From an archaeon (GTDB lineage Archaea; Iainarchaeota; Iainarchaeia; Iainarchaeales; 1-14-0-10-31-34), in contig JAJRVL010000005.1 of assembly GCA_024277355.1 (NCBI GenBank), forward strand, positions 1 through 32,000: DNA of 32,000 bases. Direction: 5' to 3'. The notes below the pieces were generated by a model. The model made no database searches. It was not told where the DNA came from and was given only the letters and a program-made list of their open reading frames with translations. Shown here one piece after another: positions 1,084-24,299 of the stretch (its first letter is position 1; each line of letters begins with the position of its first letter). Position numbers and translations under genes: made by a program.

Positions 1084-4000
1084 TTACAAATATTCATACA
1101 AAGATTTCTGCTGAACTTTATCATTTTTGAATACAGAATTAATTTCTTTTTCTGCTAACTCAATTCTCTGCTTTAAGTAATCACTTAATTCATATTCATT
1201 AATCATATTTTTTGCTATATTAAGATATTTTTTAACTGAACCTTCAGATATTGTAAGAATTAATTTTCCTTTGCATTTTTTGCAGTTTCCTGTTAATGGA
1301 ACTCTTCGGTATTTTGAACCACAGGAAGTACAACGAAAATTCTGTTTAGAAAAAGCTCTTGTATTTCCAATTATGTCAGGAACAAAATGAGACACAATAA
1401 CTCTTTCTAATGCATCTTTTTCTTCTACTGCTTTAATTTTATGCTGTAATTTTGCTTGTCTTCTTATTTTGTCTTCCATGGTTTTTAATTGAACATACAT
1501 TGATTGTTTTGGTCCTTCATCAAATTGTTCTGTGTCATGAGTAAACATTAAACCTGAATATTGTCCTGTTTTTCCTAATTTATTTTTTGTTATAGGAACA
1601 ATATCTAAATTTGATTCAGAATAATCTAATGTTTTATAATAAAATTCCAAAGGATACTTTGAAACTGTTTCCATTTCATACACTTCGTTGTCTATTTCAG
1701 AAGGGTTTAATATTGTAGTAAAAACTAATGGAGCATCCATTCTTCCGCCTCTTGAACTAGGCAGATAATGTTCAGAAAAATTAAGTAATGCATCCATTAA
1801 CAATACAATTGAATCCTGATCTCCGTCGCAGTTTCTTCTCTTACATGCAACAAAATAAGGATGGCTCCACCCAACTCTTGCTTTGCTGTAACCTAAAATT
1901 CTCCCTACAATTGCAGCTGAAGTGTGAGGAGCTAAACCAATAACTATTTCTCCAATTAATTCTTCTTTTGTTTTAACATTATAAAATGCTTTTAATCCAT
2001 AAAATTTTTCCAGTAATTCATCAATAAACGCAGTAACTTTCAACAGCCAGGTCCCTGCATTTTCATTTACTATTATGTCTTGCGGGAAAATTTCTATTGT
2101 TTGTTTTTCTGAAGTAATTTCTTTCCCATAAATGTCTTTTGCATAACCTAATTCTTTTACTTTTTCAATGCTTAAATTAAGTTCTTTTGGAGTAAAATGA
2201 GTTATTGGTGCATTAAGCAATTCAAATCTTGATGTTGCATCTCTGAAAATATGGACATTATGTTTTGCTCTTAAAATTGCTTTTTCTATTGGTTCCGGCT
2301 CTTTCAAGTCTGAAATTAATCCTTTTACTCCTTTAACTAATTCAGGCATTCTGACATTTAATTTTTTTAATCCTGAATTCACTGTTTCTTCTAAATTAAT
2401 TTCTCTTTCTTCTGATTTAATCATTTTTCCTTTGCATTGCTTGCATTGAATTTCATTTTCTTTTCCTATCCAGGAACATTTAATGCATTTGCTTACTCTT
2501 AAAGTATGCATATTGCATTTATTGCAGCTGGAAAAAGGAATTATTCTGGTGCATTTAGGACAACGAAATAAAGCTAAGTCAGTCTTTAATTTTTTGTTTG
2601 CAGCATTTAATGCAGTTATTGCTTTATTTATGCTTCTGGTATTGCTTCCGTAATTTCCTATTGGAAATAATCCATGCGGGTTTCCTTTCATTTCTCTTTC
2701 TTTAGCTTGTTCTGGTCTTCCCATTCTTGCTCCAACAAATGAAGCGCCTTTATCTTTTATTTTTATTCCTGAAAATTCTGTTAATAAATCCAAAACATTT
2801 TTTTCTTTTAGTTCTTCTTCAATTAATTCTTTTGGACTCAATGCACCTAAAGTTTTAAGCAAAGGATAAGCAGAATTTTCTATTATTATTTTGTTGTTTT
2901 TAATTAAATGAGGCAAACCAATTTTTTCCATTAATTCTTTTGTTTCATTTGTTAACTCAAATTTCGCGCCAATAATTTTATCTTTTTCAAATACTTTTTC
3001 TGCTTTTCTTGCCTGTTTCATTAATTTAATTATTTCTTCTGTGTTTAATGCAGTGTAATAATGCAAATATTTTGGATGCAATGGAACATCTAACTGCATA
3101 CTTAATTCAACAGCCATAAAGCAGTCAATTTTATTTATGTCTGAAATTTCATTTTCTTTTATTCCTTCAATTTTTTTTTCTTTTAAAGCTTTATTTAATT
3201 CTAATTCAAACCATTCTTCAACAAAAGAACTTGGAATTAATGGGTGAGAAGTTTTTCTAAAATCACCCACAGTTACTAAAATATCTCCTAAAAACAAAAT
3301 TTTTTCTATTTGAGGTTTTATTTTTTTTGCTTGTTCAACTGAATTAGGTTTAATTACATCTCCATTTTTTAGTTTAACTATTGGTCCTTCAATTGTCTCA
3401 CAAGGAAACAATTGTGCGGCTTTTCCTGGCCGTTCAATCCTTATATGTGTGCCTACTGCAATAAATTCATCTAATACAACCATTGTTGCAGGATTAATCC
3501 CTTTAGCCATTATTCCAGTGTTTCTTCCTCTTCCATATCTTAACCTAAATCCGCCGTATTTCATTGGATAAGCAAGCAAAGGCCTTCCTGCAGCTAATCT
3601 GTCTAAATACTTATAGTTTGGTTTTATTTCTGTTTTTGTTTCAGAACTTTTTTTTACTTTAATTATTTTTTCCAGCCAACTCCAGTCTAATTCCAGTTTT
3701 TTTGCCCAGTCCATTATTTTCATTGCTTTTAATGCAACTCCTTCAGTTATAACTAAACCCATTCCTCCTCTGATTCTGTTGGAAGGAATTCTTTCTATGT
3801 CTCTGTGAACTGAAACTTCTTTTTCTTCTGTCGGCACTCCATTAATACAAACTGGACATCCCCTTACAATAGTTCTTATTTCATCTTCTGTTATAGTGTA
3901 TTGTCTTGAAAAAATTTCTGTTTGATAAATCATTATTTCTTCAACATATCTTTCAACTTCTTCTTTTGTTGGATTATATCTGTCTAATTCAAGCAATTTT

Positions 4001-4506
4001 CTTGCATAATCTCCTAAAATTAAAGGCAATACAGTAGAAGAACCTCCTGCTGCTCTAATCGGTCCTGCAAAATAAATGTCAATATATTTTGTTCCATCAG
4101 GATTTTTGTTTATTTCAACTTTAGGAACTCCATCTAATGGTGCGACAACAACTCCTTCGGTTTCAATTACTAAACAGGTTTTTATTGCCTGTTCAACTCT
4201 TTTTGCTTCATCTGGAATTTCGCACCATTTTTGTTCAATTATTTCTTTGCATATTTTAAATATTATTTTTAGTCTGTCTCCTTTTAGTTCTTCAACTAAT
4301 TCTCTGTATCTTTTAGCTACTCCTTTTGGGCCTATAATGCTTTCTGCTCTTTCAGCTAAATCTAACACTGGAACACATTCAACTTTATCACTTAAATCTA
4401 ATCCTTTTTCTCTTGCTTTTCTTGCAAGTTCATATCTTTCTTTTACTTTTTCAGTAAGCAATTCAAAGTAATTTTGTATTTCAGGGATTGCTTTTAGTTC
4501 TTTCAT
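1084..4506 (-). CDS. polC: DNA polymerase II (PolD) large subunit DP2
   Basis: 1140 aa. Hallmark DP2 block GLAPHTSAAIVGRILGYSKARVGWSHPYFVACKRRNCDGDQDSIVLLMDALLNFSEHYLPSSRGGRMDAPLVFTT. Several CxxC zinc-finger pairs (CPKC...CNKC, CIKC...CKQC, CTSC...CKKC). No intein-like insertion seen. Confidence 0.97.
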   Translation of the reverse strand: MKELKAIPEIQNYFELLTEKVKERYELARKAREKGLDLSDKVECVPVLDLAERAESIIGPKGVAKRYRELVEELKGDRLKIIFKICKEIIEQKWCEIPDEAKRVEQAIKTCLVIETEGVVVAPLDGVPKVEINKNPDGTKYIDIYFAGPIRAAGGSSTVLPLILGDYARKLLELDRYNPTKEEVERYVEEIMIYQTEIFSRQYTITEDEIRTIVRGCPVCINGVPTEEKEVSVHRDIERIPSNRIRGGMGLVITEGVALKAMKIMDWAKKLELDWSWLEKIIKVKKSSETKTEIKPNYKYLDRLAAGRPLLAYPMKYGGFRLRYGRGRNTGIMAKGINPATMVVLDEFIAVGTHIRIERPGKAAQLFPCETIEGPIVKLKNGDVIKPNSVEQAKKIKPQIEKILFLGDILVTVGDFRKTSHPLIPSSFVEEWFELELNKALKEKKIEGIKENEISDINKIDCFMAVELSMQLDVPLHPKYLHYYTALNTEEIIKLMKQARKAEKVFEKDKIIGAKFELTNETKELMEKIGLPHLIKNNKIIIENSAYPLLKTLGALSPKELIEEELKEKNVLDLLTEFSGIKIKDKGASFVGARMGRPEQAKEREMKGNPHGLFPIGNYGSNTRSINKAITALNAANKKLKTDLALFRCPKCTRIIPFSSCNKCNMHTLRVSKCIKCSWIGKENEIQCKQCKGKMIKSEEREINLEETVNSGLKKLNVRMPELVKGVKGLISDLKEPEPIEKAILRAKHNVHIFRDATSRFELLNAPITHFTPKELNLSIEKVKELGYAKDIYGKEITSEKQTIEIFPQDIIVNENAGTWLLKVTAFIDELLEKFYGLKAFYNVKTKEELIGEIVIGLAPHTSAAIVGRILGYSKARVGWSHPYFVACKRRNCDGDQDSIVLLMDALLNFSEHYLPSSRGGRMDAPLVFTTILNPSEIDNEVYEMETVSKYPLEFYYKTLDYSESNLDIVPITKNKLGKTGQYSGLMFTHDTEQFDEGPKQSMYVQLKTMEDKIRRQAKLQHKIKAVEEKDALERVIVSHFVPDIIGNTRAFSKQNFRCTSCGSKYRRVPLTGNCKKCKGKLILTISEGSVKKYLNIAKNMINEYELSDYLKQRIELAEKEINSVFKNDKVQQKSLYEYL

Positions 4507-6419: not shown

Positions 6420-7580
6420 ATGAAGAAATTAGTTTTATTTTTGTTTTTTTTGATTGTGTCTGTTTCAACAGTTTTTGCTTATCCTGAATGTTTAGATATA
6501 TCGGCTTTACAGATTAATGCTCCTGCTGATGATTATACTTTAGCTCAGGGAAGTGAATTTGAATTTTCAATAACTATAACTTCTACTGATCCTTTTGGGC
6601 CAGGATACTGCACTACTAATGCAACTTTTGAGCATGACCAAAGAATTGGTTCTTTTATCAGAATAAAAGATCCTTTATTTGATCCGGGAAACAATGATTT
6701 AAACACTGTTTATTCAAGTTTAATTGCTGTTGATGTTAATTCTGTTGCTTATGGTTATGCAACAATTTTTGTTCAATGCAATACAGCAGGAGATTATCAA
6801 TTAAGATTTTCAGTTACAGGCGGAGGAGGAGTACAAAGCACTCCAGTTACAATCCATTGCCTGTCATCTAACACGCCTCCAAACGGAAATTTCATTAAAC
6901 CGTCTTCTCCTTCTTTTGTTTACGGGTATTCTTACAGAGTTGAATGGGATGCATTTGATGCTGAAGGAGATTCTTTAAGTTATGATATTGAATGGAATGG
7001 CCCTACAAGTGGAACAGATACTACAACAAATAAATATTATGATTTAACAGGCTTATCTTTAGGAGATTATACTTTTGATGTAAATATAAGTGACGGAGTT
7101 AATCCTGAAGTTAAAATTTCAAGCAGTACTTTAACAGTAAAAAAACCATTAAACACTCTTTCAGTTTCAGGTTTAAGCATTACTCCTGAAGTAATTTATG
7201 GAGATGAAGCATTAGATGTAAATTTAACTTTAAGAAACAACTCATCAAATGAAGTTGACATTAATGTTTTGTTTTACAATGATGATTTCCTTCCAAATCC
7301 TGCTCCAAGCAGAGTAATAAATATTGCGCCTTATTCTAAAGCAGATTTTTCAGTTCATCAGGATTTTTCTTCTAATAATATTGGTGCAGGAGACTATAAT
7401 GTAAGAATTTATGCAGAAGAATTTTTTTCAGGAACTTCAAATCCAACAGGAAATGTTCTGACTTCTTTTGCAAATTTCACGGTTTTAGCAGACAAAAAAT
7501 CTGTTGCTTTGCCTGAAACAAACTTTTTCTTTGTTTTATTGATTGCTTTGACTGTAATAGGAATAATAAACAGAAAATAA
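6420..7580 (+). CDS. Secreted or surface-anchored protein with PKD/CARDB-like Ig-fold repeats and a C-terminal sorting signal
   Basis: N-terminal signal peptide (MKKLVLFLFFLIVSVSTVFA). PKD-like segment (WDAFDAEGDSLSYDIEWNG...GDYTFDVNISDG). CARDB-like segment (LSVSGLSITPEVIYGDEALDVNLTLRNNSSNEVDINV). The C-terminus is LPETN followed by FFFVLLIALTVIGII and then NRK. Confidence 0.7.
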   Translation: MKKLVLFLFFLIVSVSTVFAYPECLDISALQINAPADDYTLAQGSEFEFSITITSTDPFGPGYCTTNATFEHDQRIGSFIRIKDPLFDPGNNDLNTVYSSLIAVDVNSVAYGYATIFVQCNTAGDYQLRFSVTGGGGVQSTPVTIHCLSSNTPPNGNFIKPSSPSFVYGYSYRVEWDAFDAEGDSLSYDIEWNGPTSGTDTTTNKYYDLTGLSLGDYTFDVNISDGVNPEVKISSSTLTVKKPLNTLSVSGLSITPEVIYGDEALDVNLTLRNNSSNEVDINVLFYNDDFLPNPAPSRVINIAPYSKADFSVHQDFSSNNIGAGDYNVRIYAEEFFSGTSNPTGNVLTSFANFTVLADKKSVALPETNFFFVLLIALTVIGIINRK

Positions 7581-8725: not shown

Positions 8726-9778
8726 ATGAAATTATTCTCTGGTAATTATAAATTGTATTTAATTGTGCCTTTTATACTTACATTACTTTTTGCGTTTATT
8801 GTTGGAGTTTCTCCTGGAGTAAAACAGGGAATTGACTTAAAAGGCGGAACACAAATTATTATTCGTTCTAATGTTGCTGTTGATTCAGCTGAATTAAAAT
8901 TATTGCTTGAAGAAGAATTTGAATTCATTGATTTAACTGTTAATTCAATTTCCTCTCCTACAAGCAAAGGAGTTAATATTCAATTTGCAGGAGAAAATAC
9001 TTTAATTAAAGCAAAAAAAGAATTAGATTTAGCTAAAGACTTATTTGATTCTAATCCTTCTCAATCTGAAATTCATGCATTAAATTCAATTTCATTGTCT
9101 TCTAAATTTTCTGAAATAAAAGATGAAGAATTAAAAGGAAAGGATTTAATTGAAAAAGCAGATGTAGTTTATTCCAAAGCAAAAGATGATTTTATTGAAA
9201 AAATTAAATCTATTACTGCAATTAATTTTTCTTTGAATTCAGATTTCTTTTTTTCTACTAAAGAAGTTCCTCCTGTTTTAGGAAAAACTTTTTGGGATAA
9301 TGCATTGTTTGTCAGTATTATTGCTTTTATTGGAATAATTATTGTTATCTTTTTCTTTTTCCGTGAATTTGTTCCTTCAATTGCAGTTATTTTTGCAGGA
9401 TTTTTTGATGTATTGACTGCTTTAGCTTTAATGTCTTTAACAGGAATTGCTTTAGGATTAAATTCTATTCCTGCTTTGCTTTTATTAGTTGGTTATAGTG
9501 TTGACACAGACATTCTTCTTACAACCCGTTTACTTAAAAGAAAAGATAAAACTCCAAGAGAAAGAGCAATTGATTCAATGAAAACAGGATTAACTATGAC
9601 TTTTACTACTATTGCTGCTGTTTGTGTAATGTTAATTATGTCTTATTTTTATCAGATTGAAGTAATGTTTAATATTGCTGCAGTAATTTTATTTGGTTTA
9701 ATTGGAGACTTAATTGTTACATGGATGATGAATGCTCCAATATTATTATGGTATGTTGAAAGGAAGCGAAAAGCATGA
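8726..9778 (+). CDS. secF: Protein-export membrane protein SecF
   Basis: GIDLKGGTQIII near the N-terminus. C-terminal TM bundle with VGYSVDTDILLTTRLLKR...RERAIDSMKTGLTMTFTT. GGTG lies 5 nt upstream of the ATG. Confidence 0.85.
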   Translation: MKLFSGNYKLYLIVPFILTLLFAFIVGVSPGVKQGIDLKGGTQIIIRSNVAVDSAELKLLLEEEFEFIDLTVNSISSPTSKGVNIQFAGENTLIKAKKELDLAKDLFDSNPSQSEIHALNSISLSSKFSEIKDEELKGKDLIEKADVVYSKAKDDFIEKIKSITAINFSLNSDFFFSTKEVPPVLGKTFWDNALFVSIIAFIGIIIVIFFFFREFVPSIAVIFAGFFDVLTALALMSLTGIALGLNSIPALLLLVGYSVDTDILLTTRLLKRKDKTPRERAIDSMKTGLTMTFTTIAAVCVMLIMSYFYQIEVMFNIAAVILFGLIGDLIVTWMMNAPILLWYVERKRKA

Positions 9779-11394
9779 GAGACTTATTTAGAAACTGGAA
9801 AGTAGTTTTATTGGTTGTATTTTTATTTTTAGCATTACTTTCACTTTCATTTAACGGCTTAAAATATGGCATTGACTTTAATGGAGGAACACAATTTCAG
9901 ATTCACTTAGCAAAACCTTTAGAAAATTCAGCTGAAATCGCTCAAGTTACTTCAATTATTTCTCATAGATTAGACTGGACCGGCTTAAAGGATACTAAAG
10001 TTACTGCTTGGGGTAATGAATTTATTATTGCTCAAGTAGCTGAAACTTCTCCTGAACAAGTTGAAAGAATTGAATTATTATTAAAAAAACAAGGAAGATT
10101 TGAAGCAACATTAAATGGAAAAACAATTTTTTCTGGTTCAGATATTTTGCATATTTTTAAGGATACATCTAAAGGTTATGGAATAATTAAACAAGGAGAG
10201 TCTTTTGAATGGCGTTTGCCTTTTTTGTTAAGTGAAGAAGCAGGACAAAGATTTACTGAAATGACTTTTCATCAATGCACTATTTCTGGTTTTGATGCTT
10301 CTCAAGGAAAAACTTATGATTGTGAAAAAACTTATTTTTTCATTGACCGTCCTTCAGCAGTAATTTTAATGCCTTCTTTAATGCATTCAAAAAACAAAGA
10401 TTTATTATTGACTGGAAATTTAACTGAAAATATTCCTCAAGGAACAGACATAGATGAATTACTTTTAAATGCACAGACTCCATTAATTTTAACTGATTCA
10501 AATTTATCTGATTCAGATAAAAATGAATTAATGAATTATTCTAAGACTTTTGAAAATGTAATTATTCCTTCAAATACTTTTTCTGAACAATTTTTGCTTG
10601 ACTTAAATGCTTTTGGATTTAAAGTAACTGAACTGGAACAAGAAAAAAATATTCCTTGGATTTGGAATGCTGTCGGCGTAAGAGAAGTTATTTCTTTAAG
10701 TGAAGACATAACAAACATGAATCCTTATATTGAAGATGTAAAAGATGCAAAAAGATATTCTGAATTAGTTATCAGAGGTTTTGGTTCAGATGAACAAGAT
10801 GCATTAACTAAACTTTCAAATTTAGCTATTTTGCTTGAATCAGGTTCTCTTCCTATTGGTGTAGAATCAATTGGAAAAGAAACAATTTCTCCTAATTTAG
10901 GAGAAGAATTTTTGTTTGTTGTTGCTTTAATGGGAATAATTTCTTTGATTGTAGTTATGTTAGTTTTATTTATCCGATACAAAGAACCAAGATTAATTAT
11001 TCCTATTGGGTTTACTATTTTTTCTGAAGTAGTTTTAATTTTAGGTTTTGCTTCTTTTATTAAATGGAATTTAGATTTAGCATCTCTTGCAGGAATTGTT
11101 GCTGCAGTTGGAACTGGAGTTGACCATCAGATTATTATTTCAGATGAATTATTAAGAAAAGAAGCAGATTATGAAACCTCTTTTGTTAACAGGGTTAAAA
11201 GAGCTTTTTTCATTATTTTTGCTGCTGCTGCCACTTCTTTGGTTACAATGGCTCCAATAATTTTATTTGGTTTTGGTTTAGGAAAACTTGTAGGTTTTGC
11301 AATAACTACTATTTCAGGAGTATTAATTGGTGTTTTTATTACAAGACCTGCTTTTGGAGAAATAGCAAAATACTTGTTAACTAAATCAAAGTAA
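9775..11394 (+). CDS. secD: Protein-export membrane protein SecD
   Basis: GIDFNGGTQFQIHL, a large periplasmic-type loop, then a TM bundle with VGTGVDHQIIISDELLRKE. Its start overlaps the secF stop by 4 nt (ATGA). Confidence 0.85.
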   Translation: MRDLFRNWKVVLLVVFLFLALLSLSFNGLKYGIDFNGGTQFQIHLAKPLENSAEIAQVTSIISHRLDWTGLKDTKVTAWGNEFIIAQVAETSPEQVERIELLLKKQGRFEATLNGKTIFSGSDILHIFKDTSKGYGIIKQGESFEWRLPFLLSEEAGQRFTEMTFHQCTISGFDASQGKTYDCEKTYFFIDRPSAVILMPSLMHSKNKDLLLTGNLTENIPQGTDIDELLLNAQTPLILTDSNLSDSDKNELMNYSKTFENVIIPSNTFSEQFLLDLNAFGFKVTELEQEKNIPWIWNAVGVREVISLSEDITNMNPYIEDVKDAKRYSELVIRGFGSDEQDALTKLSNLAILLESGSLPIGVESIGKETISPNLGEEFLFVVALMGIISLIVVMLVLFIRYKEPRLIIPIGFTIFSEVVLILGFASFIKWNLDLASLAGIVAAVGTGVDHQIIISDELLRKEADYETSFVNRVKRAFFIIFAAAATSLVTMAPIILFGFGLGKLVGFAITTISGVLIGVFITRPAFGEIAKYLLTKSK

Positions 11395-11427: not shown

Positions 11428-12024
11428 ATGAAACCCAAAAAAAGACCTGTAATAAAGCCAAGAAAAAGACTTTCAGTAAAAAAACAATTAGAGTCAACTA
11501 AAGGATTAACTAAAAGAGAATTAGTTTGGGCAAAACAAAAAAGAAAAAAACTAAAACAAGTTAAATCAACTGGAAACAAAAAACAAGCATTAATTCAATT
11601 AAAAGATTTTCCCAAGTCCCATTTTTTTATTCATCAACATCTTCCAGTTGAAAAAAGAATTTATTCTACTGGATTGCCTAGTGCAGGAGATATTGCATTC
11701 TTATCTGCTTTAATGCGAAAAGGAAAAGCAAAAACTGGTGTTTTAGCTTCAACTAATAATAAAGGAAAAATAACAGGTTATACTTTTTTTAAATTAAATA
11801 AACCTTTATCAAAAATAGACACTAATTTTTTGTCAATGATTATTGATAATGTTTTTGAAAAAGAAGTTAATGCAAGAACTTTAATTGATTACAGTAAAAC
11901 TCTTAAATCTGTCTTAAAAAAAGGAGGATATATTTTAACTCAAAAAACTGTTGCTATTCAGGGTTATAAATTTAACAAATCAGTAGGTTCTTTTGTAAAA
12001 ACAAGAAAAACTAAATCAAAGTAA
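11428..12024 (+). CDS. Hypothetical protein with a Lys/Arg-rich N-terminal tail
   Basis: 198-aa ORF 33 nt after secD on the same strand. The N-terminal ~55 aa are highly basic (MKPKKRPVIKPRKRLSVKK...). The C-terminal LKSVLKKGGYIL resembles the LKSGGKLLI segment of the ORF at 14060. No family recognised. Confidence 0.5.
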   Translation: MKPKKRPVIKPRKRLSVKKQLESTKGLTKRELVWAKQKRKKLKQVKSTGNKKQALIQLKDFPKSHFFIHQHLPVEKRIYSTGLPSAGDIAFLSALMRKGKAKTGVLASTNNKGKITGYTFFKLNKPLSKIDTNFLSMIIDNVFEKEVNARTLIDYSKTLKSVLKKGGYILTQKTVAIQGYKFNKSVGSFVKTRKTKSK

Positions 12025-12513
12025 CTCGTTGAATTCTTCTACTTTAGCTATCTTTTTTGTAAAGTAATACCATAACATGACAATAAATAATGCAGTAGCC
12101 ATCCATGAAATTTCATGTACAATTGAAATCAAATGAACTCCATAATTAATTCCTACCCATAACACAAAATAAATTCTGATTAAATTTAATACAAACATTA
12201 TTGCTGATGCAGCCAAAAAAATCTTGATTTTTTGTTTGATTTCTGGTTTGCTTAAAGAAAAAATTATTGCAGCAATAATGCTAATACTTACTAATCCAGT
12301 ACAAGAAGGATTAATTAATATTTTTTGGGTTTCAATAAACATTAAGTTTCCTTCAACCGGAAGATTAAATGCATTTGCCTGAATTAATGCAATCCATTTC
12401 TGAATAAAAGTTGTTGGAATAGTCCAAACTAAAAAATGCAAAACAGAAAAAATTAAAGTAAATTTAATTAAAAATAAAAGTGTTTTTTTGTTTCCTTCAA
12501 TGAATTTATGCAT
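12016..12513 (-). CDS. Exosortase/archaeosortase-family transpeptidase, minimal 165-aa form
   Basis: Polytopic membrane protein. It has the family's Cys/Arg/His arrangement in the expected order and context: INPSCTGLVSISI, then NLIRIYFVLW, then VHEISWMATALF. Its ATG is 1 nt after the carS stop. Confidence 0.7.
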   Translation of the reverse strand: MHKFIEGNKKTLLFLIKFTLIFSVLHFLVWTIPTTFIQKWIALIQANAFNLPVEGNLMFIETQKILINPSCTGLVSISIIAAIIFSLSKPEIKQKIKIFLAASAIMFVLNLIRIYFVLWVGINYGVHLISIVHEISWMATALFIVMLWYYFTKKIAKVEEFNELL

Positions 12514-12514
12514 T

Positions 12515-13027
12515 TTACCACGGAACCTTTTTTATTTTAAGTTTAAATGCAAGAAAATTACTTGCTTTATGTGCAATTAACGTAATAAAACAAATTAACA
12601 AAAACATTTCAGCTGAAACAGAATAAATTAAGCTTCCAAATAATATTACTCCGACAACAAAATCTAATTGGTCTAAAAGTAATATTGGCTTGCCTGTTGT
12701 AATGTCAAATCTTCTTTTAACAAAACTTGCAGCCACATCTCCCATTATTGCTCCAAAAGAAAGAAGTATTCCATAAAAAACATACTGAGGAATTATTGGA
12801 ACATTTCCTTGAAAATAAAAATCTAAAATTAAAACTGAAATTATTCCTGAAATAACTCCAAAAAAAGTTCCTTTAATTGATTTTCCTTTTCCAAACAAAG
12901 GTTTTTCATCAAAAAAATTCAAGTTAAAATCCATTTGTGTTTTTCCTGCAAAAAGCATTGCAGAAGAATTAGCAACATATAATGGAATTAAAATTAAAAT
13001 TATTTCAATTAAAAAAGAATAACTCAT
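12515..13027 (-). CDS. carS: CDP-archaeol synthase (CDP-2,3-bis-O-geranylgeranyl-sn-glycerol synthase)
   Basis: 170 aa. LIPLYVANSSAMLF, GKGKSIKGTFFG, GAIMGDVAASFVKRRF, LLLDQLDFVVG and a C-terminal KKVPW match the CarS (DUF46) pattern. Confidence 0.85.
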   Translation of the reverse strand: MSYSFLIEIILILIPLYVANSSAMLFAGKTQMDFNLNFFDEKPLFGKGKSIKGTFFGVISGIISVLILDFYFQGNVPIIPQYVFYGILLSFGAIMGDVAASFVKRRFDITTGKPILLLDQLDFVVGVILFGSLIYSVSAEMFLLICFITLIAHKASNFLAFKLKIKKVPW

Positions 13028-13143
13028 TTCTTCGCCTTTTTTTTATTAAGTGTGTTTGGTTATTTAATATTTATTACTGTTTTTTGTTTAAATAGTTTTC
13101 TTAACTCAATCCTTTTTTATTTTTAACATGTGTTAATTGTTTT

Positions 13144-14031
13144 ATGAATAAAATTTTTATTGCAGTAATTTTAGGATTAATTTTTTTAGTGTTATTAGCT
13201 TTAAGTTTTTCTGCTTTGTTTTCTGGATTAAATGAAGAAATAGCAGTAATTCCAATTAAAGGAGAAATCTCTTCTTCTGGAGATAGTTTTTCTTCTTCTA
13301 TGAGTTCAACTGAAATCGCAGAAAAAATAAAGCAAGCTGATTCAAATCCATTAATTAAAGCAATTTTTTTAGATATTGATTCCGGAGGAGGAAGTGTTGT
13401 TGCAACAAAAGAAATAGTTTATGCTGTAAGAGAAACAGAAAAACCAATTACTGCATATATTGGAGAAATAGGTGCGTCAGGAGCTTATTATATTGCAGCA
13501 TCTTCAGATTTAATTATTGCAGATGAAGATTCTATAACAGGAAGTATTGGGGTAATAAGTGTTTCAGCTAATGTTACTGGTTTATTAGAAAAACTGGGAA
13601 TTAAAGTTACTGTTTTAAAAGAAGGAGAATTCAAAGATATTGGTTCTCCATTTAAAGAATTAAATGAAAAAGAAAAAGAAATTTTAAATGAATTAATTTC
13701 TGAAGTAGCAGTAAACTTCAAAAAAGATATTTTAGATTTCAGAAAAGAAAAAATGCAGGAAGAAAAATTTAATCAAATAGCTGATGGAAGAATTCTTTCA
13801 GGAAGAAAAGCAAAAGAAATAGGTTTAATTGATTTTACTGGAAGTAAAAGTTTTGCAATAAAAAAAACAGCTGAATTAGCAGGCATTAAAGGAAAACCTT
13901 CATTAAAGTATTTTAAAAAAGAACAATCTGATTTATTTTCTTTGTTTTCTAAAATGGGTTATTCTTTTGGTTCTGGTTTTGTTTCTTCACTTAAGGCATC
14001 TAATTCTAATTTCCAGTTATATGCAAAATAA
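13144..14031 (+). CDS. sppA: Signal peptide peptidase SppA (S49 family, 36K type)
   Basis: N-terminal TM anchor, then IDSGGGSV, YIGEIGASGAYYIAASSDLIIADEDSITGSIGVI and a GRILSGRKAKEIGLID motif. Confidence 0.9.
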   Translation: MNKIFIAVILGLIFLVLLALSFSALFSGLNEEIAVIPIKGEISSSGDSFSSSMSSTEIAEKIKQADSNPLIKAIFLDIDSGGGSVVATKEIVYAVRETEKPITAYIGEIGASGAYYIAASSDLIIADEDSITGSIGVISVSANVTGLLEKLGIKVTVLKEGEFKDIGSPFKELNEKEKEILNELISEVAVNFKKDILDFRKEKMQEEKFNQIADGRILSGRKAKEIGLIDFTGSKSFAIKKTAELAGIKGKPSLKYFKKEQSDLFSLFSKMGYSFGSGFVSSLKASNSNFQLYAK

Positions 14032-14059: not shown

Positions 14060-14740
14060 ATGAAGCCAAAACCAAGAAAACTTTCTTCTGCAATGCTTGC
14101 TAAAAGAAAAAAAACTGATGTTTCTGAAAGCAGATTAAATGCAATAAAAAAAATGGCTAAACCAAGAAAAAAAAGAGTTATAGTTCATTTAGGAAATGTA
14201 GGTTCAGGAAAAACCAAAGTAGGAACCATTAAAATAAATCATTTTCCTGCACAAAAAACTTTTGCTTATGCTAAAAAGTTTCCAAATTTTAAGTTTATTG
14301 GAATTGATGCCTTGCATTTAGGGCTTTATATGCAAATAAAACCAAAAAATATGAATCAAATTAAAGCAGGATTTAAAGGAGGTTTAGGTAAATTAAAGGA
14401 TAATTCAGTTGATTTAATTTCTTCTGAAATGGCTTTAGGTTATTATGGCTCAAAATTTAAGGGAGTAAATAAATCTCAAAAAGGAAATTACAGGGAATAC
14501 ACAAAAAAAGTTACAGAAAGAGCTTACAAAAAACTTAAATCAGGAGGAAAATTATTGATTGCATTAGACTCTGATATAATTGCGTCTGTGTTTGACTCTC
14601 TGGTTTCTGTAGGATTTAAGCCTGAAAATATTAAAGCAAAATTAATGACAAAAAAAGAAAGCCAAAGAACTTATTGGCTTGAAAATTATAAAAAAGAACA
14701 TCAAGGAATTATATTTTATCAGTTAAGTGCAGTAAAATAA
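14060..14740 (+). CDS. Class I SAM-methyltransferase-like protein with a basic N-terminal tail
   Basis: VIVHLGNVGSG (motif I-like), AKKFPNFKFIGIDA (motif II-like), NSVDLISSEMAL and YKKLKSGGKLLIAL (post-motif). The N-terminal ~40 aa are Lys/Arg-rich (MKPKPRK...). The fold assignment is tentative. Confidence 0.5.
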   Translation: MKPKPRKLSSAMLAKRKKTDVSESRLNAIKKMAKPRKKRVIVHLGNVGSGKTKVGTIKINHFPAQKTFAYAKKFPNFKFIGIDALHLGLYMQIKPKNMNQIKAGFKGGLGKLKDNSVDLISSEMALGYYGSKFKGVNKSQKGNYREYTKKVTERAYKKLKSGGKLLIALDSDIIASVFDSLVSVGFKPENIKAKLMTKKESQRTYWLENYKKEHQGIIFYQLSAVK

Positions 14741-14741
14741 T

Positions 14742-15428
14742 TTAACCTGCAATTATAACTGAAATTATTACTGCAATTGAAGTTGCAATAAAATTAACTA
14801 AAGTGTTTGAAAGTTTTCCTTTTCTTTCAAATAAAGCCCCTAAAATGCTGTCAGCAAAACTTCCAATTAATCCTGCGAATAAAATTATTCCTGCAAAAAA
14901 CACGCTTGAATATAATGCATAATACATTAATGCAATTAATCCTGCTCCAATAAAAGCTGAAATACTTCCTAAAACGGTTATTCCTCCGTCTGTTCCTGTT
15001 TCAACTTCCTGAAAATTAGTTATAAGCAAAGGTTTTTTTTTAGATAACATGCCTATTTCTGAACTCATTGTATCAGCTAAAGCAGCTGAAATTACAGCAA
15101 AAAACCCTAAAGGAAAATTTAATCCTAAAGCAATCACTGCAGCTAAAGAATTTCCTAAAACGTTTCCTGTTGTTCTTGTTTCATGTTTTTCTTTTCTTTT
15201 TTTTGCTCCATATTTAGTGCTTAATTCTCCTATTATAAGAAAATAAGTCATAAACAAAAAAGCAGTTAATCCGCCAACTGAAGTCATTAACCCAAAAAAA
15301 ATAGTAATTAATCCAATTAAGATTCCAATTATTATTCCTTTTTTGTCAAAACTTTTTTTTCTTAATGACGTAAAAGAAAATAATGCAAAAACTAGTATTA
15401 TTATAATTATTTCAGGAAAGCTTAACAC
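14742..15428 (-). CDS. DUF92/TMEM19-family integral membrane protein (VTE6-like, possible isoprenoid-phosphate kinase)
   Basis: RTTGNVLGNSLAAV, ALADTMSSEIGMLSKKKPLLI, ETGTDGGITVLGS and GSFADSILGA fit DUF92. Its start lies 2 nt after the rps3ae stop. Confidence 0.7.
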   Translation of the reverse strand: MLSFPEIIIIILVFALFSFTSLRKKSFDKKGIIIGILIGLITIFFGLMTSVGGLTAFLFMTYFLIIGELSTKYGAKKRKEKHETRTTGNVLGNSLAAVIALGLNFPLGFFAVISAALADTMSSEIGMLSKKKPLLITNFQEVETGTDGGITVLGSISAFIGAGLIALMYYALYSSVFFAGIILFAGLIGSFADSILGALFERKGKLSNTLVNFIATSIAVIISVIIAG

Positions 15429-18562: not shown

Positions 18563-19681
18563 CTATTTAAACACTTTTTTGAATTTTTTGAAAAAACCAT
18601 TGTCTTCTTTTTCTTCTTGTTTTATTTCTTCAAACAATTCTTTTTGTTTTCTTGAAAGCTTTTCAGGAGTTCTTACAATTACTTTAATGTATTCATCTCC
18701 AAAACCGCCTCTTTCAATGTCTTTAATTCCTTTTCCTTTTAATCTAAAAATAGTTCCAGTCTGGGTTCCTGCAGGAATCTTTAATTTTCCTTTTTCTTTT
18801 AATGTTGGAATTTCAATTTCTCCTCCTAAAGCTGCAGTTGAAAAATTAATTGGAACTTCTCCATAAATATCTGTCTGGTCTCTTTTGAAAAATTTATGCG
18901 GTTCAATAAAAATAATTACATATAAGTCTCCGTTTCCTGCGCCTCTTTCTCCTGCATTTCCTTCTCCTTGTAATCTTAAATAAGCTCCATTTTGGATTCC
19001 TTCAGGAATTCTTACTTCAATTTTTCTTTTTTTCTTTATTCTTCCTGTTCCATGGCATTTACTGCATGGGTTTTTTACTGTTTTTCCTTCTCCTCCACAT
19101 TTTCTGCAGGTTGTTTTTGTAGTAAAAGTTCCAAAAGGCGTTCTTTGGGCATGAGTCTGCATTCCTGTTCCATTACATTGACTACAGTCAATTAAACCAT
19201 CTTTTTCTTCTGAACCTGTTCCATTGCATTTATCACAGGCTTCAATTCTTTCTATTTCAATTTCTTTTTTTATTCCAAATACTGCTTCTTCAAATCCAAT
19301 ATTTAAATCAAACCTTAAATCAACTCCTTTTCTTGGACCTCTTTTTTTTCCTCTTCCTCCAAAAATATTTCCAAAACCAAAACTTGAAAACAAGTCATCA
19401 AAATCCATATTAGAAAAATCAAATCCTCCTGTTCCTTGTCCTCCAAATCCCTGAAAGCCTTCAGCTGCGTGCCCAAACTGATCATAATTAGATTTTTTTT
19501 GTTCATCGCTTAAAACAGAATAAGCTTCTAATATTTCTTTGAATTTTTCTTCAGCATGTTCTTCTTTAGATATATCTGGATGAAATTTTTTTGCCATTTT
19601 TTTGTAAGCAGATTTAATTTCGTCAGCTGAAGCTCCTTTATTCAACCCTAAAATTTCATAGTAATCTCTTTTTGTGGTCAT
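18563..19681 (-). CDS. dnaJ: Chaperone DnaJ (Hsp40, type I)
   Basis: J domain with KKFHPD, a G/F-rich linker and four CxxCxGxG repeats (CDKCNGTG, CSQCNGTG, CRKCGGEG, CSKCHGTG). Confidence 0.97.
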   Translation of the reverse strand: MTTKRDYYEILGLNKGASADEIKSAYKKMAKKFHPDISKEEHAEEKFKEILEAYSVLSDEQKKSNYDQFGHAAEGFQGFGGQGTGGFDFSNMDFDDLFSSFGFGNIFGGRGKKRGPRKGVDLRFDLNIGFEEAVFGIKKEIEIERIEACDKCNGTGSEEKDGLIDCSQCNGTGMQTHAQRTPFGTFTTKTTCRKCGGEGKTVKNPCSKCHGTGRIKKKRKIEVRIPEGIQNGAYLRLQGEGNAGERGAGNGDLYVIIFIEPHKFFKRDQTDIYGEVPINFSTAALGGEIEIPTLKEKGKLKIPAGTQTGTIFRLKGKGIKDIERGGFGDEYIKVIVRTPEKLSRKQKELFEEIKQEEKEDNGFFKKFKKVFK

Positions 19682-19740
19682 AAACTTTCACACTAAGTTT
19701 GCACTTATGCTGAAAAATAAAGAAGAAAGAAAAGAAATTT

Positions 19741-19763
19741 AAGTTAATTGAATTAATTAACTT
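19741..19763 (-). terminator. AT-only hairpin between dnaK and dnaJ (possible attenuator or terminator)
   Basis: aagttaatt / gaatt / aattaactt is a perfect 9-bp inverted repeat with a 5-nt loop, 21 nt downstream of the dnaK stop. In the transcription direction it is followed by T-rich sequence. The stem is all A/T apart from one G-C pair, so it is weak. Confidence 0.25.
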
Positions 19764-19783
19764 TTTTCTTTTAAATTATTTTT

Positions 19784-21682
19784 TTACTTTTTATCTTCTT
19801 TTTTGTCTTTTTCAACTTTATAGTCTGCGTCAACAACTTTTTCGTCTTTTGATTTATCTTTGTTTTCTGTCTGGTTTGTGCCTGTATTTCCTTGAGTTTC
19901 TGTTTGTCCTTTAGCCTGTTGCTCTTGTGCTGCTTTTTGGTATAATTCAGTTGAAGCTTCCTGAAATAATTTATTTACTTCATCTAATTTTGTTTTGATT
20001 GCTGTAACATCTTTTTGTTCTGGTTCCATTAATTTTTTTAGTTCAGCTGTTTTGTCTTTTATTCCCTGAATTTTTTTTGCATCAACTTTTCCTTCCATTT
20101 CTTTCAAAGTTTTTTCTGTTTGATATACAACTGCGTCTGCCTGGTTTATTATGTCAATTTCTTCTTTTTTCTTTTTGTCTGTTTCAGCAAATTGTTCTGC
20201 TTCTTTTTTCATTTTTTCAATGTCTTCTTCTTTTAATTTTTCTGAAGCAACAATTGAAATTTTCTGGCTTTTTCCTGTTCCCATATCTTTTGCTGTTACA
20301 TGCACTATTCCGTTTGCATCAATATCAAAGGTAACTTCAATTTGAGGTATTCCACGAGGTGCCGGAGGGATTCCAATTAACTGAAATCTTCCTAAAGTTT
20401 TGTTATCTGAAGCCATTGCTCTTTCTCCCTGCAATACATGAATATCAACTGCTGTTTGATTTTCTGCTGCAGTAGAAAAAATCTGGCTTTTTTTTGTTGG
20501 AATAGTTGTATTTCTTTCAATTAATTTAGTAAAAACACTTCCTAAAGTTTCAATTCCTAAACTTAATGGAGTTACATCTAAAAGCAAAATATCTTTTACT
20601 TCTCCTGATAAAACTCCTGCCTGAATTGCTGCACCCATTGCAACACATTCCATTGGGTCAACGCCTCTTTCAACTTTTTTTCCAACAATTTTTTCTACAA
20701 ATTCATGGACTATAGGCATTCTTGTCGGGCCTCCAACTAAAACAACTCTGTGAATGTCATTTGGAGTTAATTTTGCGTCAGCTAAAGCCTGATTAACAGG
20801 CTTTTCACATTTTTCAACAATTGGTTTAACTAATTCTTCAATTTTAGCTCTGTTTAATTTCATTACTAAATGTTTTGGTCCTTCTTTTGTTGCAGTAATA
20901 TAAGGCAGATTAATTTCGGTTTCAATTACATTAGATAATTCAATTTTTGCTTTTTCTGCTGATTCATTTAATCTCTGCAAAGCCATTTTATCTTGAGTTA
21001 AATCTACTCCGTCTGTTTTCTTGAATTCAGCTATAATAAAATCAGTTAACACTTTATCCATGTCTCTTCCGCCTAATTGAGTGTTTCCTGAAGTTGACTT
21101 AACTTCAAATACTCCGTCGCCGAAATCCATTATAGTTACATCTAATGTTCCTCCGCCAAAATCAAAAACCAAAATTTTCTGGTCTTTTTCTTTTTTATCT
21201 AAACCATAAGCTAAGGATGCGGCTGTTGGTTCATTAACTATTCTGATTACATCTAATCCTGCAATTTTTCCTGCGTCTTTTGTTGCCTGTCTTTGATTGT
21301 CATCAAAGTAAGCCGGAACTGTAATCACTGCTTTTTCTACTTTTTCTCCTAAAAAGCTTTCTGCATCTTTTTTTATTTTCTGCAAAATAAAAGCTGAAAT
21401 CTGCTGAGGAGTGTATTCTTTTCCATAAACTTTAAATTTTTCTGTTGTTCCCATTTTTCTTTTTGCACCGGTAATTGTTCCTTCTGGATTGCTTATTGCT
21501 TGTCTTTTTGCTGGTTCTCCAACTAACATTTGCCCGTCTTTAGTAAAAGCTACAATTGAAGGAAATGCTTTTCCATATAAACTTGCTCCTTCAGCTGAAG
21601 AAATTATTTTTGGTTTTCCTCCTTCTAATACTGCTGCTGCAGAATTTGAAGTTCCTAAATCTATTCCGATTATCTTACTCAT
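19784..21682 (-). CDS. dnaK: Chaperone DnaK (Hsp70)
   Basis: [28 protein letters not shown] and a complete substrate-binding domain; 632 aa. GGTGAT lies 4 nt upstream of the ATG. Confidence 0.98.
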
Positions 21683-21696
21683 TTTATCACCTTTTT

Positions 21697-21831
21697 TTAA
21701 TTAGCATAAATTTGCTTTCTTAATCTCTTTTCTTCTTCATTTAAGTTTGGTTTAGCTTTATCTGGGATTTCTTCTGGAAACTCCTCAAAATCTTCTGGGC
21801 CAAATTCTTCATTCAATTTTTTTTCATTCAT
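21697..21831 (-). CDS. Unannotated 44-aa acidic small ORF between grpE and dnaK
   Basis: Hand translation gives [44 protein letters not shown] then TAA. The ATG (21831-21829) lies inside the last codons of grpE. The stop is directly upstream of the dnaK GGTGAT site. It is below the track length cutoff. Confidence 0.45.
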
Positions 21832-22336
21832 TTTTTTCACTCTCTATTGAATTAATTTTAACTTTTGAATGCCTTAACACTTTGTCATTTAACATAAATC
21901 CTTTTTGAAATTCCTCTAAAATAATTTCATCTTGTTTTTCTGAATTATTTTCTTTTAGTAAGCATTCATGGAATTCCGGATTAAATTTTTTTCCAAGTGA
22001 ATTAATTTCTTTTAAACCATATTTTTCTAAAACTTCAGTTAATTGTTTTTTAATTAATTCAAGTCCTTTAATTGTTTCTGGATTCCCGTTTTTTTCAGCA
22101 GAATCAATTGAATCAAGTATTGGAAGCAAGGATTTAATTAATTCAGCATTACTAAATTCAGCAAAATGTTTTCTGTCTTTTTCTTCTCTTTTCTTAAAAT
22201 TTTCAAATTCTGCCTGAATTCTTTTAACTAATTCAGTTAATTCTTCTATTTTAGCTTGTTTTAAGTCTTTATTTGCTGTTTCTTCTTTTTCTTTTCTTTC
22301 TTTTTTTATGTGTTTATGTCCAATCAAATTAATCAC
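21824..22336 (-). CDS. grpE: Nucleotide exchange factor GrpE
   Basis: Coiled-coil N-terminus (LVKRIQAEFENFKKREEKD), LLPILDSIDSA, FNPEFHECL and a C-terminal beta domain ending KVLRHSKVKI. There is no ATG in the first ~140 codons. The start is GTG 22336 or TTG 22327. Confidence 0.9.
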   Translation of the reverse strand: MINLIGHKHIKKERKEKEETANKDLKQAKIEELTELVKRIQAEFENFKKREEKDRKHFAEFSNAELIKSLLPILDSIDSAEKNGNPETIKGLELIKKQLTEVLEKYGLKEINSLGKKFNPEFHECLLKENNSEKQDEIILEEFQKGFMLNDKVLRHSKVKINSIESEKNE

Positions 22337-22410: not shown

Positions 22411-22905
22411 ATGGAAGAAAATGAAAGAAAACTAATTGCATTTAATCATAGATTTCAGTTAACAGGAAAAATTCATATTCCTGCTGCTACTAAGCATAGA
22501 TTTCAGGTTATAATAAGAAAAGTTGAACAGCCTTTTTCAACGCAAGCAGATGAAGAATTTAATTGGTTGTTAGAGTGTTTAGGCTTTTTTGAGCCTATAG
22601 ATAAAGGAAAAACAGCTGCTTTAGTGTTTAAGGAATTAGTTAAAGCCACTGAGAGTGGAAGATTATTAACTTCAACTGAATTAGCTGAAAGAGTCGGTAT
22701 GAGCAGAGGAGCAGTAATTAATCATTTAAATAATCTTCAAAGATCTGGCCTTGTATTAAAGGAAGGAAGCAGATATATGTCCAGAAGCAAGTCAATGTTT
22801 CGCATGATTAAAGAATTACAGGATGAAATTAATTTAGTTTTTAAAAGAATGGAACAAACTGCAAAGGAATTAGACCAAGAAATGGGCTTGTTTTTAAAGG
22901 ATTAA
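22411..22905 (+). CDS. Winged-helix (ArsR/TrmB-like) transcriptional regulator, divergent from grpE-dnaK-dnaJ
   Basis: The HTH segment LTSTELAERVGMSRGAVINHLNNLQRSGLVLKEG is followed by a helical tail. The track starts at TTG 22393. I prefer ATG 22411 (MEENERK...). Confidence 0.6.
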   Translation: MEENERKLIAFNHRFQLTGKIHIPAATKHRFQVIIRKVEQPFSTQADEEFNWLLECLGFFEPIDKGKTAALVFKELVKATESGRLLTSTELAERVGMSRGAVINHLNNLQRSGLVLKEGSRYMSRSKSMFRMIKELQDEINLVFKRMEQTAKELDQEMGLFLKD

Positions 22906-24299
22906 ACTCTTTTAAATTTTGACTGAAAATGCCTTAAGATTGGACTTTCAAATTCAAATTTTAATCCTTTGATTTTGTCTTTTCTTTCCTTTATGTTTTT
23001 CATTGCTTCAATAATATAATCCATATGTTCTTTCAGATAAACTCTTCTTGGAATAGTCAACCTCATTAAATCCATTTCAGGCATTTTATCTTTTCCTGTT
23101 TTTGGATCTCTTCCAGCTAATAATGTTCCTATTTCTACTGCTCTAATTCCTGCTTCAATATAAAGTTCAGTGCAAAGTGTATGTGAAGGAAATTGTTCTT
23201 GCGGAATATGAGCCAAAAATTTTTTGCCGTCAACAAAAACTGCATGACCTCCAATTGGTTTCATTATTGGAATTCCAATTTTATTTAATTCTTCTCCTAA
23301 ATATTTAACTTGTCCAATTCTGTATTTTAAATAGTCTTCTTGTATTCCTTCTTTTAATCCAACTGCAATTGCTTCTAAATCTCTTCCGGCTAATCCTCCA
23401 TAAGTTGGAAAACCTTCAAATAAAATTCCAAAAGGAATGCTTTTTTCATAAAGTTCTTTTTCTTTAAATGCAATTAATCCGCCAATATTAACTATTGCAT
23501 CTTTTTTTGCGCTCATTGTGCATCCATCAGCATAAGAAAACATTTCTAAAACAATTTCTGAAATTGATTTATTTTCAAAACCTTTTTCTCTTTGTTTAAT
23601 GAAAAAAGCATTTTCTGCAAATCTTGCTGCATCAATAAAAAAATAAACTTCAAACTTTTTGCATAACTCGCTTGTTTTTTTTATGTTTTCCATTGAAACC
23701 GGCTGGCCTCCTCCGGAATTACAAGTAATTGTATGCAGAACATAACCTATATTTCCTTTATTTTTTTATAAAACTTCTTCTAATTTTTTTAAATCAATAT
23801 TTCCTTTAAATGGAAGTTCTTTTTCACAGTCAAATGCTTCTTTTATTACACAATTAACAGGAATTCCTTTTTTGTGCTCAATATGGGCTGTTGTTGTGTC
23901 AAAATGAATGTTTCCAGGAATTATGTTTCCTTCTTTTATTAAAACTGCATCTAATATGTGTTCTGCTGCTCTTCCCTGATGTACAGGCAGAACAAAATCA
24001 AATCCAATTACATCTTTAACTGAATTTTTAAAGTTATCAAAACTTTTTGCTCCGGCATAACTTTCATCTGCTTTAATCATTGCAGACCATTGCTCCTGAG
24101 ACATTGCATTTGTTCCTGAATCAGTTAATAAATCAATAAAAATTTCATTTGATTTAAGCAAAAAAATATTTAAGCCTGCTTTTTCTATTGCTTTAATTCT
24201 TTTTTCTTTTGAAATTAGTTTTATTGGTTCAATGCTTTTAATTTTAAAATTCGGAATAATATAATTCAATTTTTCACAACCCTGCTTTTTTTTAAACAT
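22902..24299 (-). pseudogene. Tryptophanase/tyrosine phenol-lyase family (beta-eliminating lyase) gene interrupted by one in-frame TAA
   Basis: Track ORFs 23766-24299 (N-terminal part: FIDLLTDSGTNAMS, PVHQGRAAE) and 22902-23693 (C-terminal part: DAARFAENAFFIKQRE, PLP-lysine motif MSAKKDA, FPTYGGLAG, LRLTIPRRVY) are in the same frame. The 72 nt between them translate as KNKGNIGYVLHTITCNSGGGQPVS, which is the expected conserved segment. The only defect is TAA at 23766-23768. Confidence 0.85.

Follow-up and report, generated by a model that had tools for sequence, protein, structure and literature searches.

What does a very small archaeosortase-like gene do beside the gene of a lipid-activating enzyme, and is their adjacency more than a by-product of a compact genome? 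This question is raised by a 32,000-nucleotide (nt) stretch of an Iainarchaeota contig (the window, in which all coordinates are positions), where the gene of a 165-amino-acid (aa) protein of the archaeosortase family, here called art, stands directly downstream of carS, which codes for CDP-archaeol (cytidine diphosphate archaeol) synthase. The carS-art pair is conserved across two DPANN phyla and is probably an ancient operon. By analogy with Haloferax, and with moderate confidence, we favour the reading that this minimal archaeosortase cleaves C-terminal sorting signals and attaches the cleaved protein to a polar lipid whose precursor is CDP-archaeol. The features that form the pair are the following:

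12515..13027, minus strand: carS, CDP-archaeol synthase, 170 aa, the first gene of the pair (profile matches, and the ...VPW-stop end found throughout the family)
12016..12513, minus strand: art, a small archaeosortase-family gene, 165 aa, of a subfamily that carries no name (PF09721 and TIGR04178 matches, invariant residues and an AlphaFold2 model)
12511..12517, minus strand: the carS/art junction, with the carS stop TAA at 12517-12515, an A as spacer at 12514 and the art ATG at 12513-12511 (read from the sequence)

A preliminary description of this DNA, made from the letters alone, had noted that the carS stop and the ATG of the 165-aa open reading frame (ORF) are separated by one nucleotide on the same strand, which is correct, 12514 being the only spacer base. 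Judged by its matches to profile hidden Markov models (HMMs), the upstream ORF is a bona fide CDP-archaeol synthase: its product scores 142.7 bits with Pfam PF01864 and 164.4 bits (cut-off 148) with the NCBIfam equivalog NF003114, which covers residues 4-170 of 170, and the ORF ends in ...KKVPW followed by TAA. The assignment of the downstream protein to the archaeosortases and exosortases, proposed at first from short motifs, was borne out by a profile-HMM search with significant matches to Pfam PF09721 (Exosortase_EpsH; 34.1 bits, cut-off 25.7, profile positions 98-251 of 254) and to the NCBIfam exosortase/archaeosortase signature TIGR04178 (49.7 bits, cut-off 23, residues 66-151). None of the named subfamily models reaches its cut-off, neither ArtE (32.0 bits vs 95), ArtD (31.4 vs 125), pacearchaeosortase (30.7 vs 80), ArtA (TIGR04125; 29.9 vs 75) and ArtC (27.3 vs 100), nor heimdallarchaeosortase (19.7 vs 130) and ArtF (13.4 vs 150), and ArtB gives no match at E <= 1; on these scores the protein is a member of the superfamily belonging to a subfamily without a name. 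The idea that its "minimal" size is unusual did not hold, as several NCBIfam archaeosortase/exosortase families are already modelled at 150-168 positions. Database pipelines already call its homologues "archaeosortase/exosortase family protein", and the family identity of the small protein is in itself not new.

The motifs PSCTG, NLIRIY and VHEISW, previously reported in this ORF, were located as INPSCTGLV, LNLIRIYF and IVHEISWM, and the residues of interest are Cys71 (codon 12303-12301), Arg113 (codon 12177-12175) and His133 (codon 12117-12115). Twenty-eight close homologues, all of them with PF09721, were found, and a profile search then gave 223, all of about 160 aa; those named carry the organism labels Diapherotrites, Iainarchaeum, "Micrarchaeota" or plain "archaeon". 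Two alignments, of 22 and 28 sequences (A1 and A2), show no variation at C71, T72, G73, N110, R113, H133 or W137, and Cys, Arg, His, Asn and Trp are likewise invariant in two outgroup alignments (A4 and A6). The Cys...Arg...His arrangement that had drawn attention to the gene thus extends to every homologue examined, distant clades included. The AlphaFold2 model (pLDDT 89.3, pTM 0.79) has helices at 2-31, 35-48, 74-86, 92-124 and 128-156 and a beta-hairpin at 57-66, with four long membrane helices predicted; neither a sequence search nor a fold search found a solved structure resembling the 165-aa protein. The distribution of basic charge suggests that the N-terminus, the loop 87-96 (SKPEIKQKIK) and the C-terminus face the cytoplasm. 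Therefore C71, R113 and H133 would lie toward the outer face, in the outward half of the membrane, which is where a substrate motif just outside its own helix would be expected to sit. From its sequence, ORF 12016-12513 probably encodes a genuine and active minimal cysteine transpeptidase of the archaeosortase family.

The Iainarchaeota subfamily also has a conserved cytoplasmic C-terminal motif of its own, WYYFTKK(I/V)xK(V/I)KxFxELL (12016-12060 in the window), or ...DFSGFL in other members (A1, A2); the outgroup clades lack it, and it may be an interaction motif.

The spacing of the two genes says little about their relationship. The window is AT-rich (about 28% GC) and its genes are densely packed, and junctions of <=4 nt or overlapping ones also occur between the PolD small subunit and UPF0147, between DUF92 and S3Ae, and between Sua5 and an Rce1-like gene. 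Because tight or overlapping junctions are so frequent between unrelated genes of the window, the 1-nt abutment of carS and art is by itself unremarkable in so compact a genome. No terminator-like site was found between carS and art on the minus strand, in scans for sigma-70 promoters and terminators that are uninformative for an archaeon. The signal that is not due to chance is the conservation of the pair, not its spacing.

This conservation was followed first within Iainarchaeota (Diapherotrites). In the neighbourhoods of homologues at 40-74% identity, carS lies directly upstream of art in 6 out of 6 cases. Scanning a single genome for each GTDB species gave 41 loci, including those of the complete AR10 genome (CP010424.1) and of Ca. 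Iainarchaeum andersonii; all 41 are apparently of Iainarchaeota/Diapherotrites type, some of the records bearing another phylum label or none. Among 45 distinct Iainarchaeota loci, 43 have carS immediately upstream on the same strand, and in 34-36 the distance from the carS stop to the art start is 7 nt or less, or the two overlap. The typical junction, CC(A/G)TGGTGA, is a 7-nt overlap in which the start of art falls inside the terminal Pro-Trp codons of CarS. When neighbouring pairs were scored within 300 nt as a control of adjacency, secD-secF was kept in 39/39 loci, carS-art in 43/45, art-secD in 34/40 and secF-nog1 in 24/29; the retention of carS-art is thus nearly as strict as that of secD-secF, and stricter than that of art-secD or secF-nog1.

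Both exceptions (L019 and L039) belong to one lineage, where an insertion has placed the gene of a 201-aa secreted protein between carS and art (L019 3555-4606; L039 1350-2868); in L039 carS is only a remnant, and a HicB/HicA-like (toxin-antitoxin-like) pair has also been inserted. A further locus, L042, was considered as a genuine copy without carS and rejected, as it holds an N-terminally truncated art fragment beside a transposase. This fragment of 117 aa (3771-4124), about 2.7 kb from the transposase-like ORF and in the same metagenome-assembled genome as L030, is probably a pseudogene or an artefact of binning or assembly. In L008 (9918-9990) the carS/art junction is duplicated, with TAAAATGCAA present twice, 55 nt apart, which leaves a 5-codon ORF (ATG CAA TTA AAA AAA, then TAA) between carS and the real art start.

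The pairing also reaches far beyond this phylum. When 1.84 billion representative proteins were searched exhaustively with a profile, 645 relatives were returned, which form a continuum of archaeosortase-like proteins of about 150-190 aa; 10 sampled outgroup members reach the general signature model only and no named subfamily. One outgroup clade, in part at least from Micrarchaeota, with one representative annotated as Candidatus Micrarchaeota, is characterised by the motifs DC(S/T)GLVM, FNLxRL and LWFVDS(A/G)VV and has 20-30% identity to the window protein. Metagenome contigs scanned with this clade (alignment A6) gave 24 loci with 48-62% GC, 19 of them with sequence upstream of art, and in all 19 art is immediately preceded by a CarS gene of the same strand (88-183 bits in hmmsearch; 125-176 bits with the Pfam CarS-like family for two of them), stop and start overlapping or abutting in most of the loci. 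The adjacency of carS and art, reported originally from a single genome, is therefore found well outside it, in 43/45 Iainarchaeota loci and in 19/19 informative loci of a distant Micrarchaeota-type clade, and it persists at about 30-39% identity between the CarS proteins, 20-30% between the Art proteins, and a GC content of 28% vs 48-62%.

What surrounds the pair differs between the two clades. In the window the relevant neighbours are these:

13028..13143, no strand: intergenic region between the divergent carS and sppA genes, presumably a shared promoter (the arrangement recurs in both clades)
13144..14031, plus strand: sppA, signal peptide peptidase of the S49 family, divergent from carS (TIGR00706, 193 bits, cut-off 155.45; PF01343, 134.5 bits)
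14742..15428, minus strand: a DUF92/TIGR00297 membrane protein (PF01940, 157.9 bits; TIGR00297, 156 bits, below its cut-off of 205.85)
8726..11394, plus strand: secF (8726-9778) and secD (9775-11394), convergent with art and conserved neighbours in Iainarchaeota, where art and secD are no more than 150 nt apart in 34/40 loci (family matches)

In Iainarchaeota, the pair is part of a syntenic block of ribosomal proteins, RIO kinase, DUF92, sppA, carS, art, secD, secF, NOG1, UPF0147 and PolD. In 25 Iainarchaeota loci sppA is the neighbour of carS, and in 9 Micrarchaeota-type loci carS has a divergently oriented gene of an S49 signal peptide peptidase beside it; sppA, overlooked in the preliminary description, is the third conserved member of the unit. 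In 38 Iainarchaeota loci the DUF92 gene is retained upstream of carS, directly adjacent to it where sppA is missing. The Micrarchaeota-type loci contain neither DUF92 nor NOG1, and SecDF is present in only one of them (L048). The conserved core is therefore the divergent sppA plus the carS-art pair, surviving the decay of all other synteny, and the strongest argument that the linkage has been selected rather than passively kept is that this core outlasts the synteny around it.

Two ORFs with lysine-rich N-termini flank the sppA-carS-art block, one at 11428-12024 (plus strand; 198 aa, MKPKKRP..., overlapping the 3' end of art by 9 nt) and the other at 14060-14740 (plus strand; MKPKPRK...), and neither matches any family. 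They were considered as paralogues or as members of the unit and rejected, since they have no mutual similarity and each is found in one other locus only, recurring at the same spot in a single related locus (L007 and L008).

A rather unlikely alternative is that carS, art and sppA (with secDF and the DUF92 gene in Iainarchaeota) are co-located as co-expressed housekeeping genes of a generic envelope-biogenesis operon, in which the archaeosortase would process or release surface proteins, or attach them to an acceptor other than lipid, with no special link to CarS. The Iainarchaeota block is syntenic throughout, clearly unrelated genes included, tight junctions are shared by unrelated genes of the window, CarS serves the synthesis of all polar lipids, and no pssA-like gene lies nearby, all of which would fit this explanation. 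It is harder to reconcile with the Micrarchaeota-type clade, which without the wider synteny keeps carS-art in 19/19 loci, sppA being usually present as well and the junction overlapping in the same way, or with the fact that among the neighbouring Iainarchaeota pairs only that involving secD and secF is kept more strictly; moreover, the precedent of Haloferax and Methanosarcina ties archaeosortases to the same branch of lipid synthesis (PMC7157517).

That the adjacency is an ancestral accident, hitch-hiking in two related DPANN phyla with no functional meaning, is highly improbable. Both clades are indeed DPANN lineages, and the pair tolerates an insertion in one lineage; against this, the adjacency has outlasted a deep divergence of CarS and Art and a shift in GC content while all neighbours but sppA were lost, and without selection on co-expression it is hard to see why, in both clades, the stop and start codons overlap in most of the loci.

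If the small protein is a sorting enzyme, it should have substrates, and one candidate lies in the window itself:

6420..7580, plus strand: candidate substrate, a 386-aa secreted protein with an N-terminal signal peptide (tripartite C-terminus at 7509-7577)

This ORF ends in ...SVALPETN-FFFVLLIALTVIGII-NRK, that is, LPETN, 15 hydrophobic residues and NRK, so that the C-terminal signal pointed out earlier at 7509-7577 is present as the end of the 386-aa protein. Its syntenic orthologues (L001, L002, L008 and L009) keep [V/S][A/S][L/V][P/N]ET[N/S], a hydrophobic stretch and K/R, and a candidate substrate thus exists in the window, with orthologous tails in four relatives. These tails match no curated sorting-signal model, PGF-CTERM included, apart from a sub-threshold NPXTG score of 14.9 bits (cut-off 23.5) in one orthologue, and a profile of the five tails (A3) compared with a large protein database gave 8 word-sharing candidates, none of them with E <= 10. 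In the distant clade, a protein of at least 730 aa (L066 836-3028, minus strand) without any Pfam hit ends in ...PDIVLP-VAAVAALLALYAL-RRK and is encoded convergently, immediately downstream of a Micrarchaeota-type art; it is a possible substrate there.

The scarcity of substrates bears on another explanation, namely that the small protein acts on lipids or on CarS, either as an accessory or regulatory subunit of CarS or as a Cys-dependent head-group or lipid transferase. No sorting signal common to several different proteins was found in the window or the flanks of related loci, no named and substrate-defined archaeosortase subfamily model was matched, the pairing with carS is nearly universal in two clades, and the conserved cytoplasmic ...K(V/I)KxFxELL C-terminus could be a site of interaction. 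Even so, we consider such a role very unlikely. The invariant Cys, Arg, His and other residues are those of the exosortase/archaeosortase signature region, and the apparent absence of substrates is weak evidence, given that about 20 kb per genome was searched. We know of no member of the superfamily that acts on lipids alone. Archaeosortases conserve the residues of the catalytic triad of sortases, and ArtA is proteolytic (PMC6098224).

The reading favoured here, sorting coupled to a lipid acceptor, can be set out as follows. In this proposal art would be the second cistron of a carS-art operon, both membrane proteins being made from one transcript in linked amounts, which is probable because the start of art abuts or overlaps the stop of carS; translation of the two genes may be coupled as well. 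The substrates, by analogy with Haloferax ArtA, would be surface proteins exported by Sec that end in a motif, a short hydrophobic helix and basic residues. The Cys nucleophile would cut at the motif, which in the window may be that of ...SVALPETN-FFFVLLIALTVIGII-NRK, and the cut protein would be passed on to a polar lipid of the archaeal type that is synthesised from CDP-archaeol, the product of CarS. From its conserved position only, it may be speculated that SppA clears the membrane peptide that is left over.

The chemistry of the last transfer sets a limit on how far the pair could work alone. The preliminary description had stated that ArtA processing in Haloferax depends on enzymes of archaetidylserine and archaetidylethanolamine synthesis, and the literature agrees: HvPssA and HvPssD are required, and in the proposed model the amine of archaetidylethanolamine attacks a thioester intermediate (PMC7157517). 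CDP-archaeol has no obvious nucleophile, Haloferax needs homologues of archaetidylserine synthase and decarboxylase in addition (PMC7157517), and no CDP-alcohol phosphatidyltransferase motif (DGx2ARx6-10Gx3Dx3D) was found in the window or within about 10 kb in any of 71 loci. The "two-gene lipidation module" suggested before is thus too strong a term, because CDP-archaeol lacks an amine for the attack on the thioester, and a head-group enzyme encoded elsewhere is therefore presumably needed, unless the chemistry differs.

Several points weigh against the favoured reading. As said, CDP-archaeol itself is unlikely to be the acceptor, and CarS, a housekeeping enzyme, supplies the synthesis of every polar lipid, which makes a linkage with its gene less specific than one with pssA/pssD. 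The pair has been split by an insertion in the L019/L039 lineage without loss of art, and Iainarchaeota and Micrarchaeota are both DPANN, so that they may share one inherited arrangement instead of having two independent ones. Neither the window nor the flanks of other Iainarchaeota loci, about 650 kb in all, yielded a second, unrelated protein with an LPETN-type tail; the tail was seen in one orthologous family of the closest clade only, where its conservation could be plain orthology. Finally, LPETN resembles a bacterial signal of the LPXTG type, and a true sortase may be encoded elsewhere in the genome.

A bolder version of the same idea sees CarS and the mini-archaeosortase as physically coupled parts of one ancestral DPANN machine that would lipidate the C-termini of surface proteins (for example those of the S-layer), drawing directly on archaeol activated by CarS, and possibly derived from the host, without the PssA/PssD route, and with SppA removing the cleaved peptide. 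This is quite improbable, but, if it is true, no smaller system for anchoring proteins to lipids would be known in archaea.

The closest known system is that of ArtA. Like the window protein, ArtA is a polytopic membrane enzyme of this superfamily in which Cys, Arg and His are conserved, and the predicted active-site residues, which resemble those of sortases, are important in ArtA mutants (PMC6098224). In Methanosarcina artA adjoins pssA and pssD (PMC7157517), so that both genes are linked in the genome to the CDP-archaeol branch of polar-lipid synthesis, and both enzymes would be expected to act on secreted proteins that end in a motif, a hydrophobic stretch and a basic tail. The differences lie in the partner gene (carS, one step upstream of PssA, instead of pssA/pssD), in size (165 aa vs about 300 aa for ArtA, whose model has 271 positions), in the motif (candidate LPETN vs the PGF of ArtA substrates) and in the hosts (DPANN archaea vs Euryarchaeota), and here there are, in addition, overlapping stop and start codons and the extra conserved neighbour sppA.

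ArtB, ArtD, ArtE, ArtF and pacearchaeosortase, with models of 150-167 positions, are of the same size class as the window protein and share with it the signature region and a similar number of helices; the best subfamily scores, those of ArtE, ArtD and pacearchaeosortase, are all far under their cut-offs, and the window family has its own C-terminal motif. To our knowledge, no linkage with carS has been reported for these named small subfamilies. The bacterial exosortase (EpsH/XrtA)/PEP-CTERM system belongs to the same superfamily and also consists of a dedicated sorting enzyme and a tripartite C-terminal signal, but EpsH-type exosortases have about 8 membrane helices and are found in exopolysaccharide loci, whereas the window protein corresponds to the C-terminal catalytic half only and is linked to a gene of lipid activation. 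Sortase A of Gram-positive bacteria, with its LPXTG signal, is analogous and not homologous: the LPETN candidate shares the architecture and nearly the sequence of that signal, and both enzymes have catalytic Cys, Arg and His, although Sortase A has an unrelated fold and family and attaches proteins to a peptidoglycan precursor that these archaea are not known to make. Rhombosortase, which acts on GlyGly-CTERM proteins in Vibrio, is likewise an intramembrane enzyme that processes a C-terminal signal, but it is a bacterial serine protease of the rhomboid family with unrelated sequence; its processing is reportedly coupled to the attachment of a lipid moiety that contains ethanolamine. It has been cited as a non-homologous analogue of archaeosortase (PMC7157517).

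The place of DUF92 in the block touches on lipid supply too. We take this family to correspond to COG1836. The plant phytyl-phosphate kinase VTE6 has been linked to COG1836 (PMC9782597), and, if DUF92 is indeed COG1836, its position hints at a lipid-salvage pair of a polyprenyl-phosphate kinase and CarS.

Elsewhere in the window, a single beta-eliminating lyase is spread over two minus-strand ORFs 72 nt apart, 22902-23693 with its C-terminal part (Pfam positions 148-286) and 23766-24299 with its N-terminal part (positions 1-117); either the gene is split or a pseudogene, or the break is a frameshift from sequencing. Two more predicted intramembrane proteases are encoded at 28436-28999 (minus strand) and 24582-25175 (plus strand); one, of the CPBP family, is Rce1-like, and its gene shares 4 nt with that of Sua5, while the other is M50B-like, by a weak match below threshold. 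A grpE-dnaK-dnaJ chaperone cluster of bacterial type lies at 18563-22336. No tRNA genes and no matches to Rfam families were found in the 32-kb window.

The locus thus joins a known enzyme family to a known theme, that of archaeosortases encoded with polar-lipid genes, and what is apparently new is the partner carS, the unnamed subfamily and the group of organisms. Searches of the searchable literature turned up no paper combining CDP-archaeol synthase with exosortase, no carS-archaeosortase linkage in the papers that name both archaeosortase and CDP-archaeol (Haft et al. 2012 may mention one), and no description of archaeosortases for Diapherotrites, Micrarchaeota or other DPANN. Experiments on covalent lipid anchoring by archaeosortases have so far been made in Haloferax only, where the lipid donor and the coupling of cleavage to lipidation remain speculative (PMC7157517). 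The conservation of carS-art is independent, comparative evidence, and it suggests that the function of archaeosortases is tied to the CDP-archaeol branch.

It also extends the archaeosortase system to DPANN archaea. In a cultivated Micrarchaeon, which depends on lipids or lipid precursors of its host, the anchoring of the S-layer has been marked as unknown (PMC8975820). The lipid scavenging that the preliminary description presumed for the reduced genome of the window is thus documented for that Micrarchaeon, while a possibly free-living life has been suggested for Ca. Iainarchaeum andersonii (PMC6349945). The carS-art pair is a concrete candidate and a testable lead for the anchoring of surface proteins in these organisms, and its enzyme of about 160 aa is an attractive structural and biochemical target in a superfamily without a solved structure. 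A pair that re-activates an archaeol-type lipid and attaches proteins to it would connect the scavenging of lipids to the building of the cell surface.

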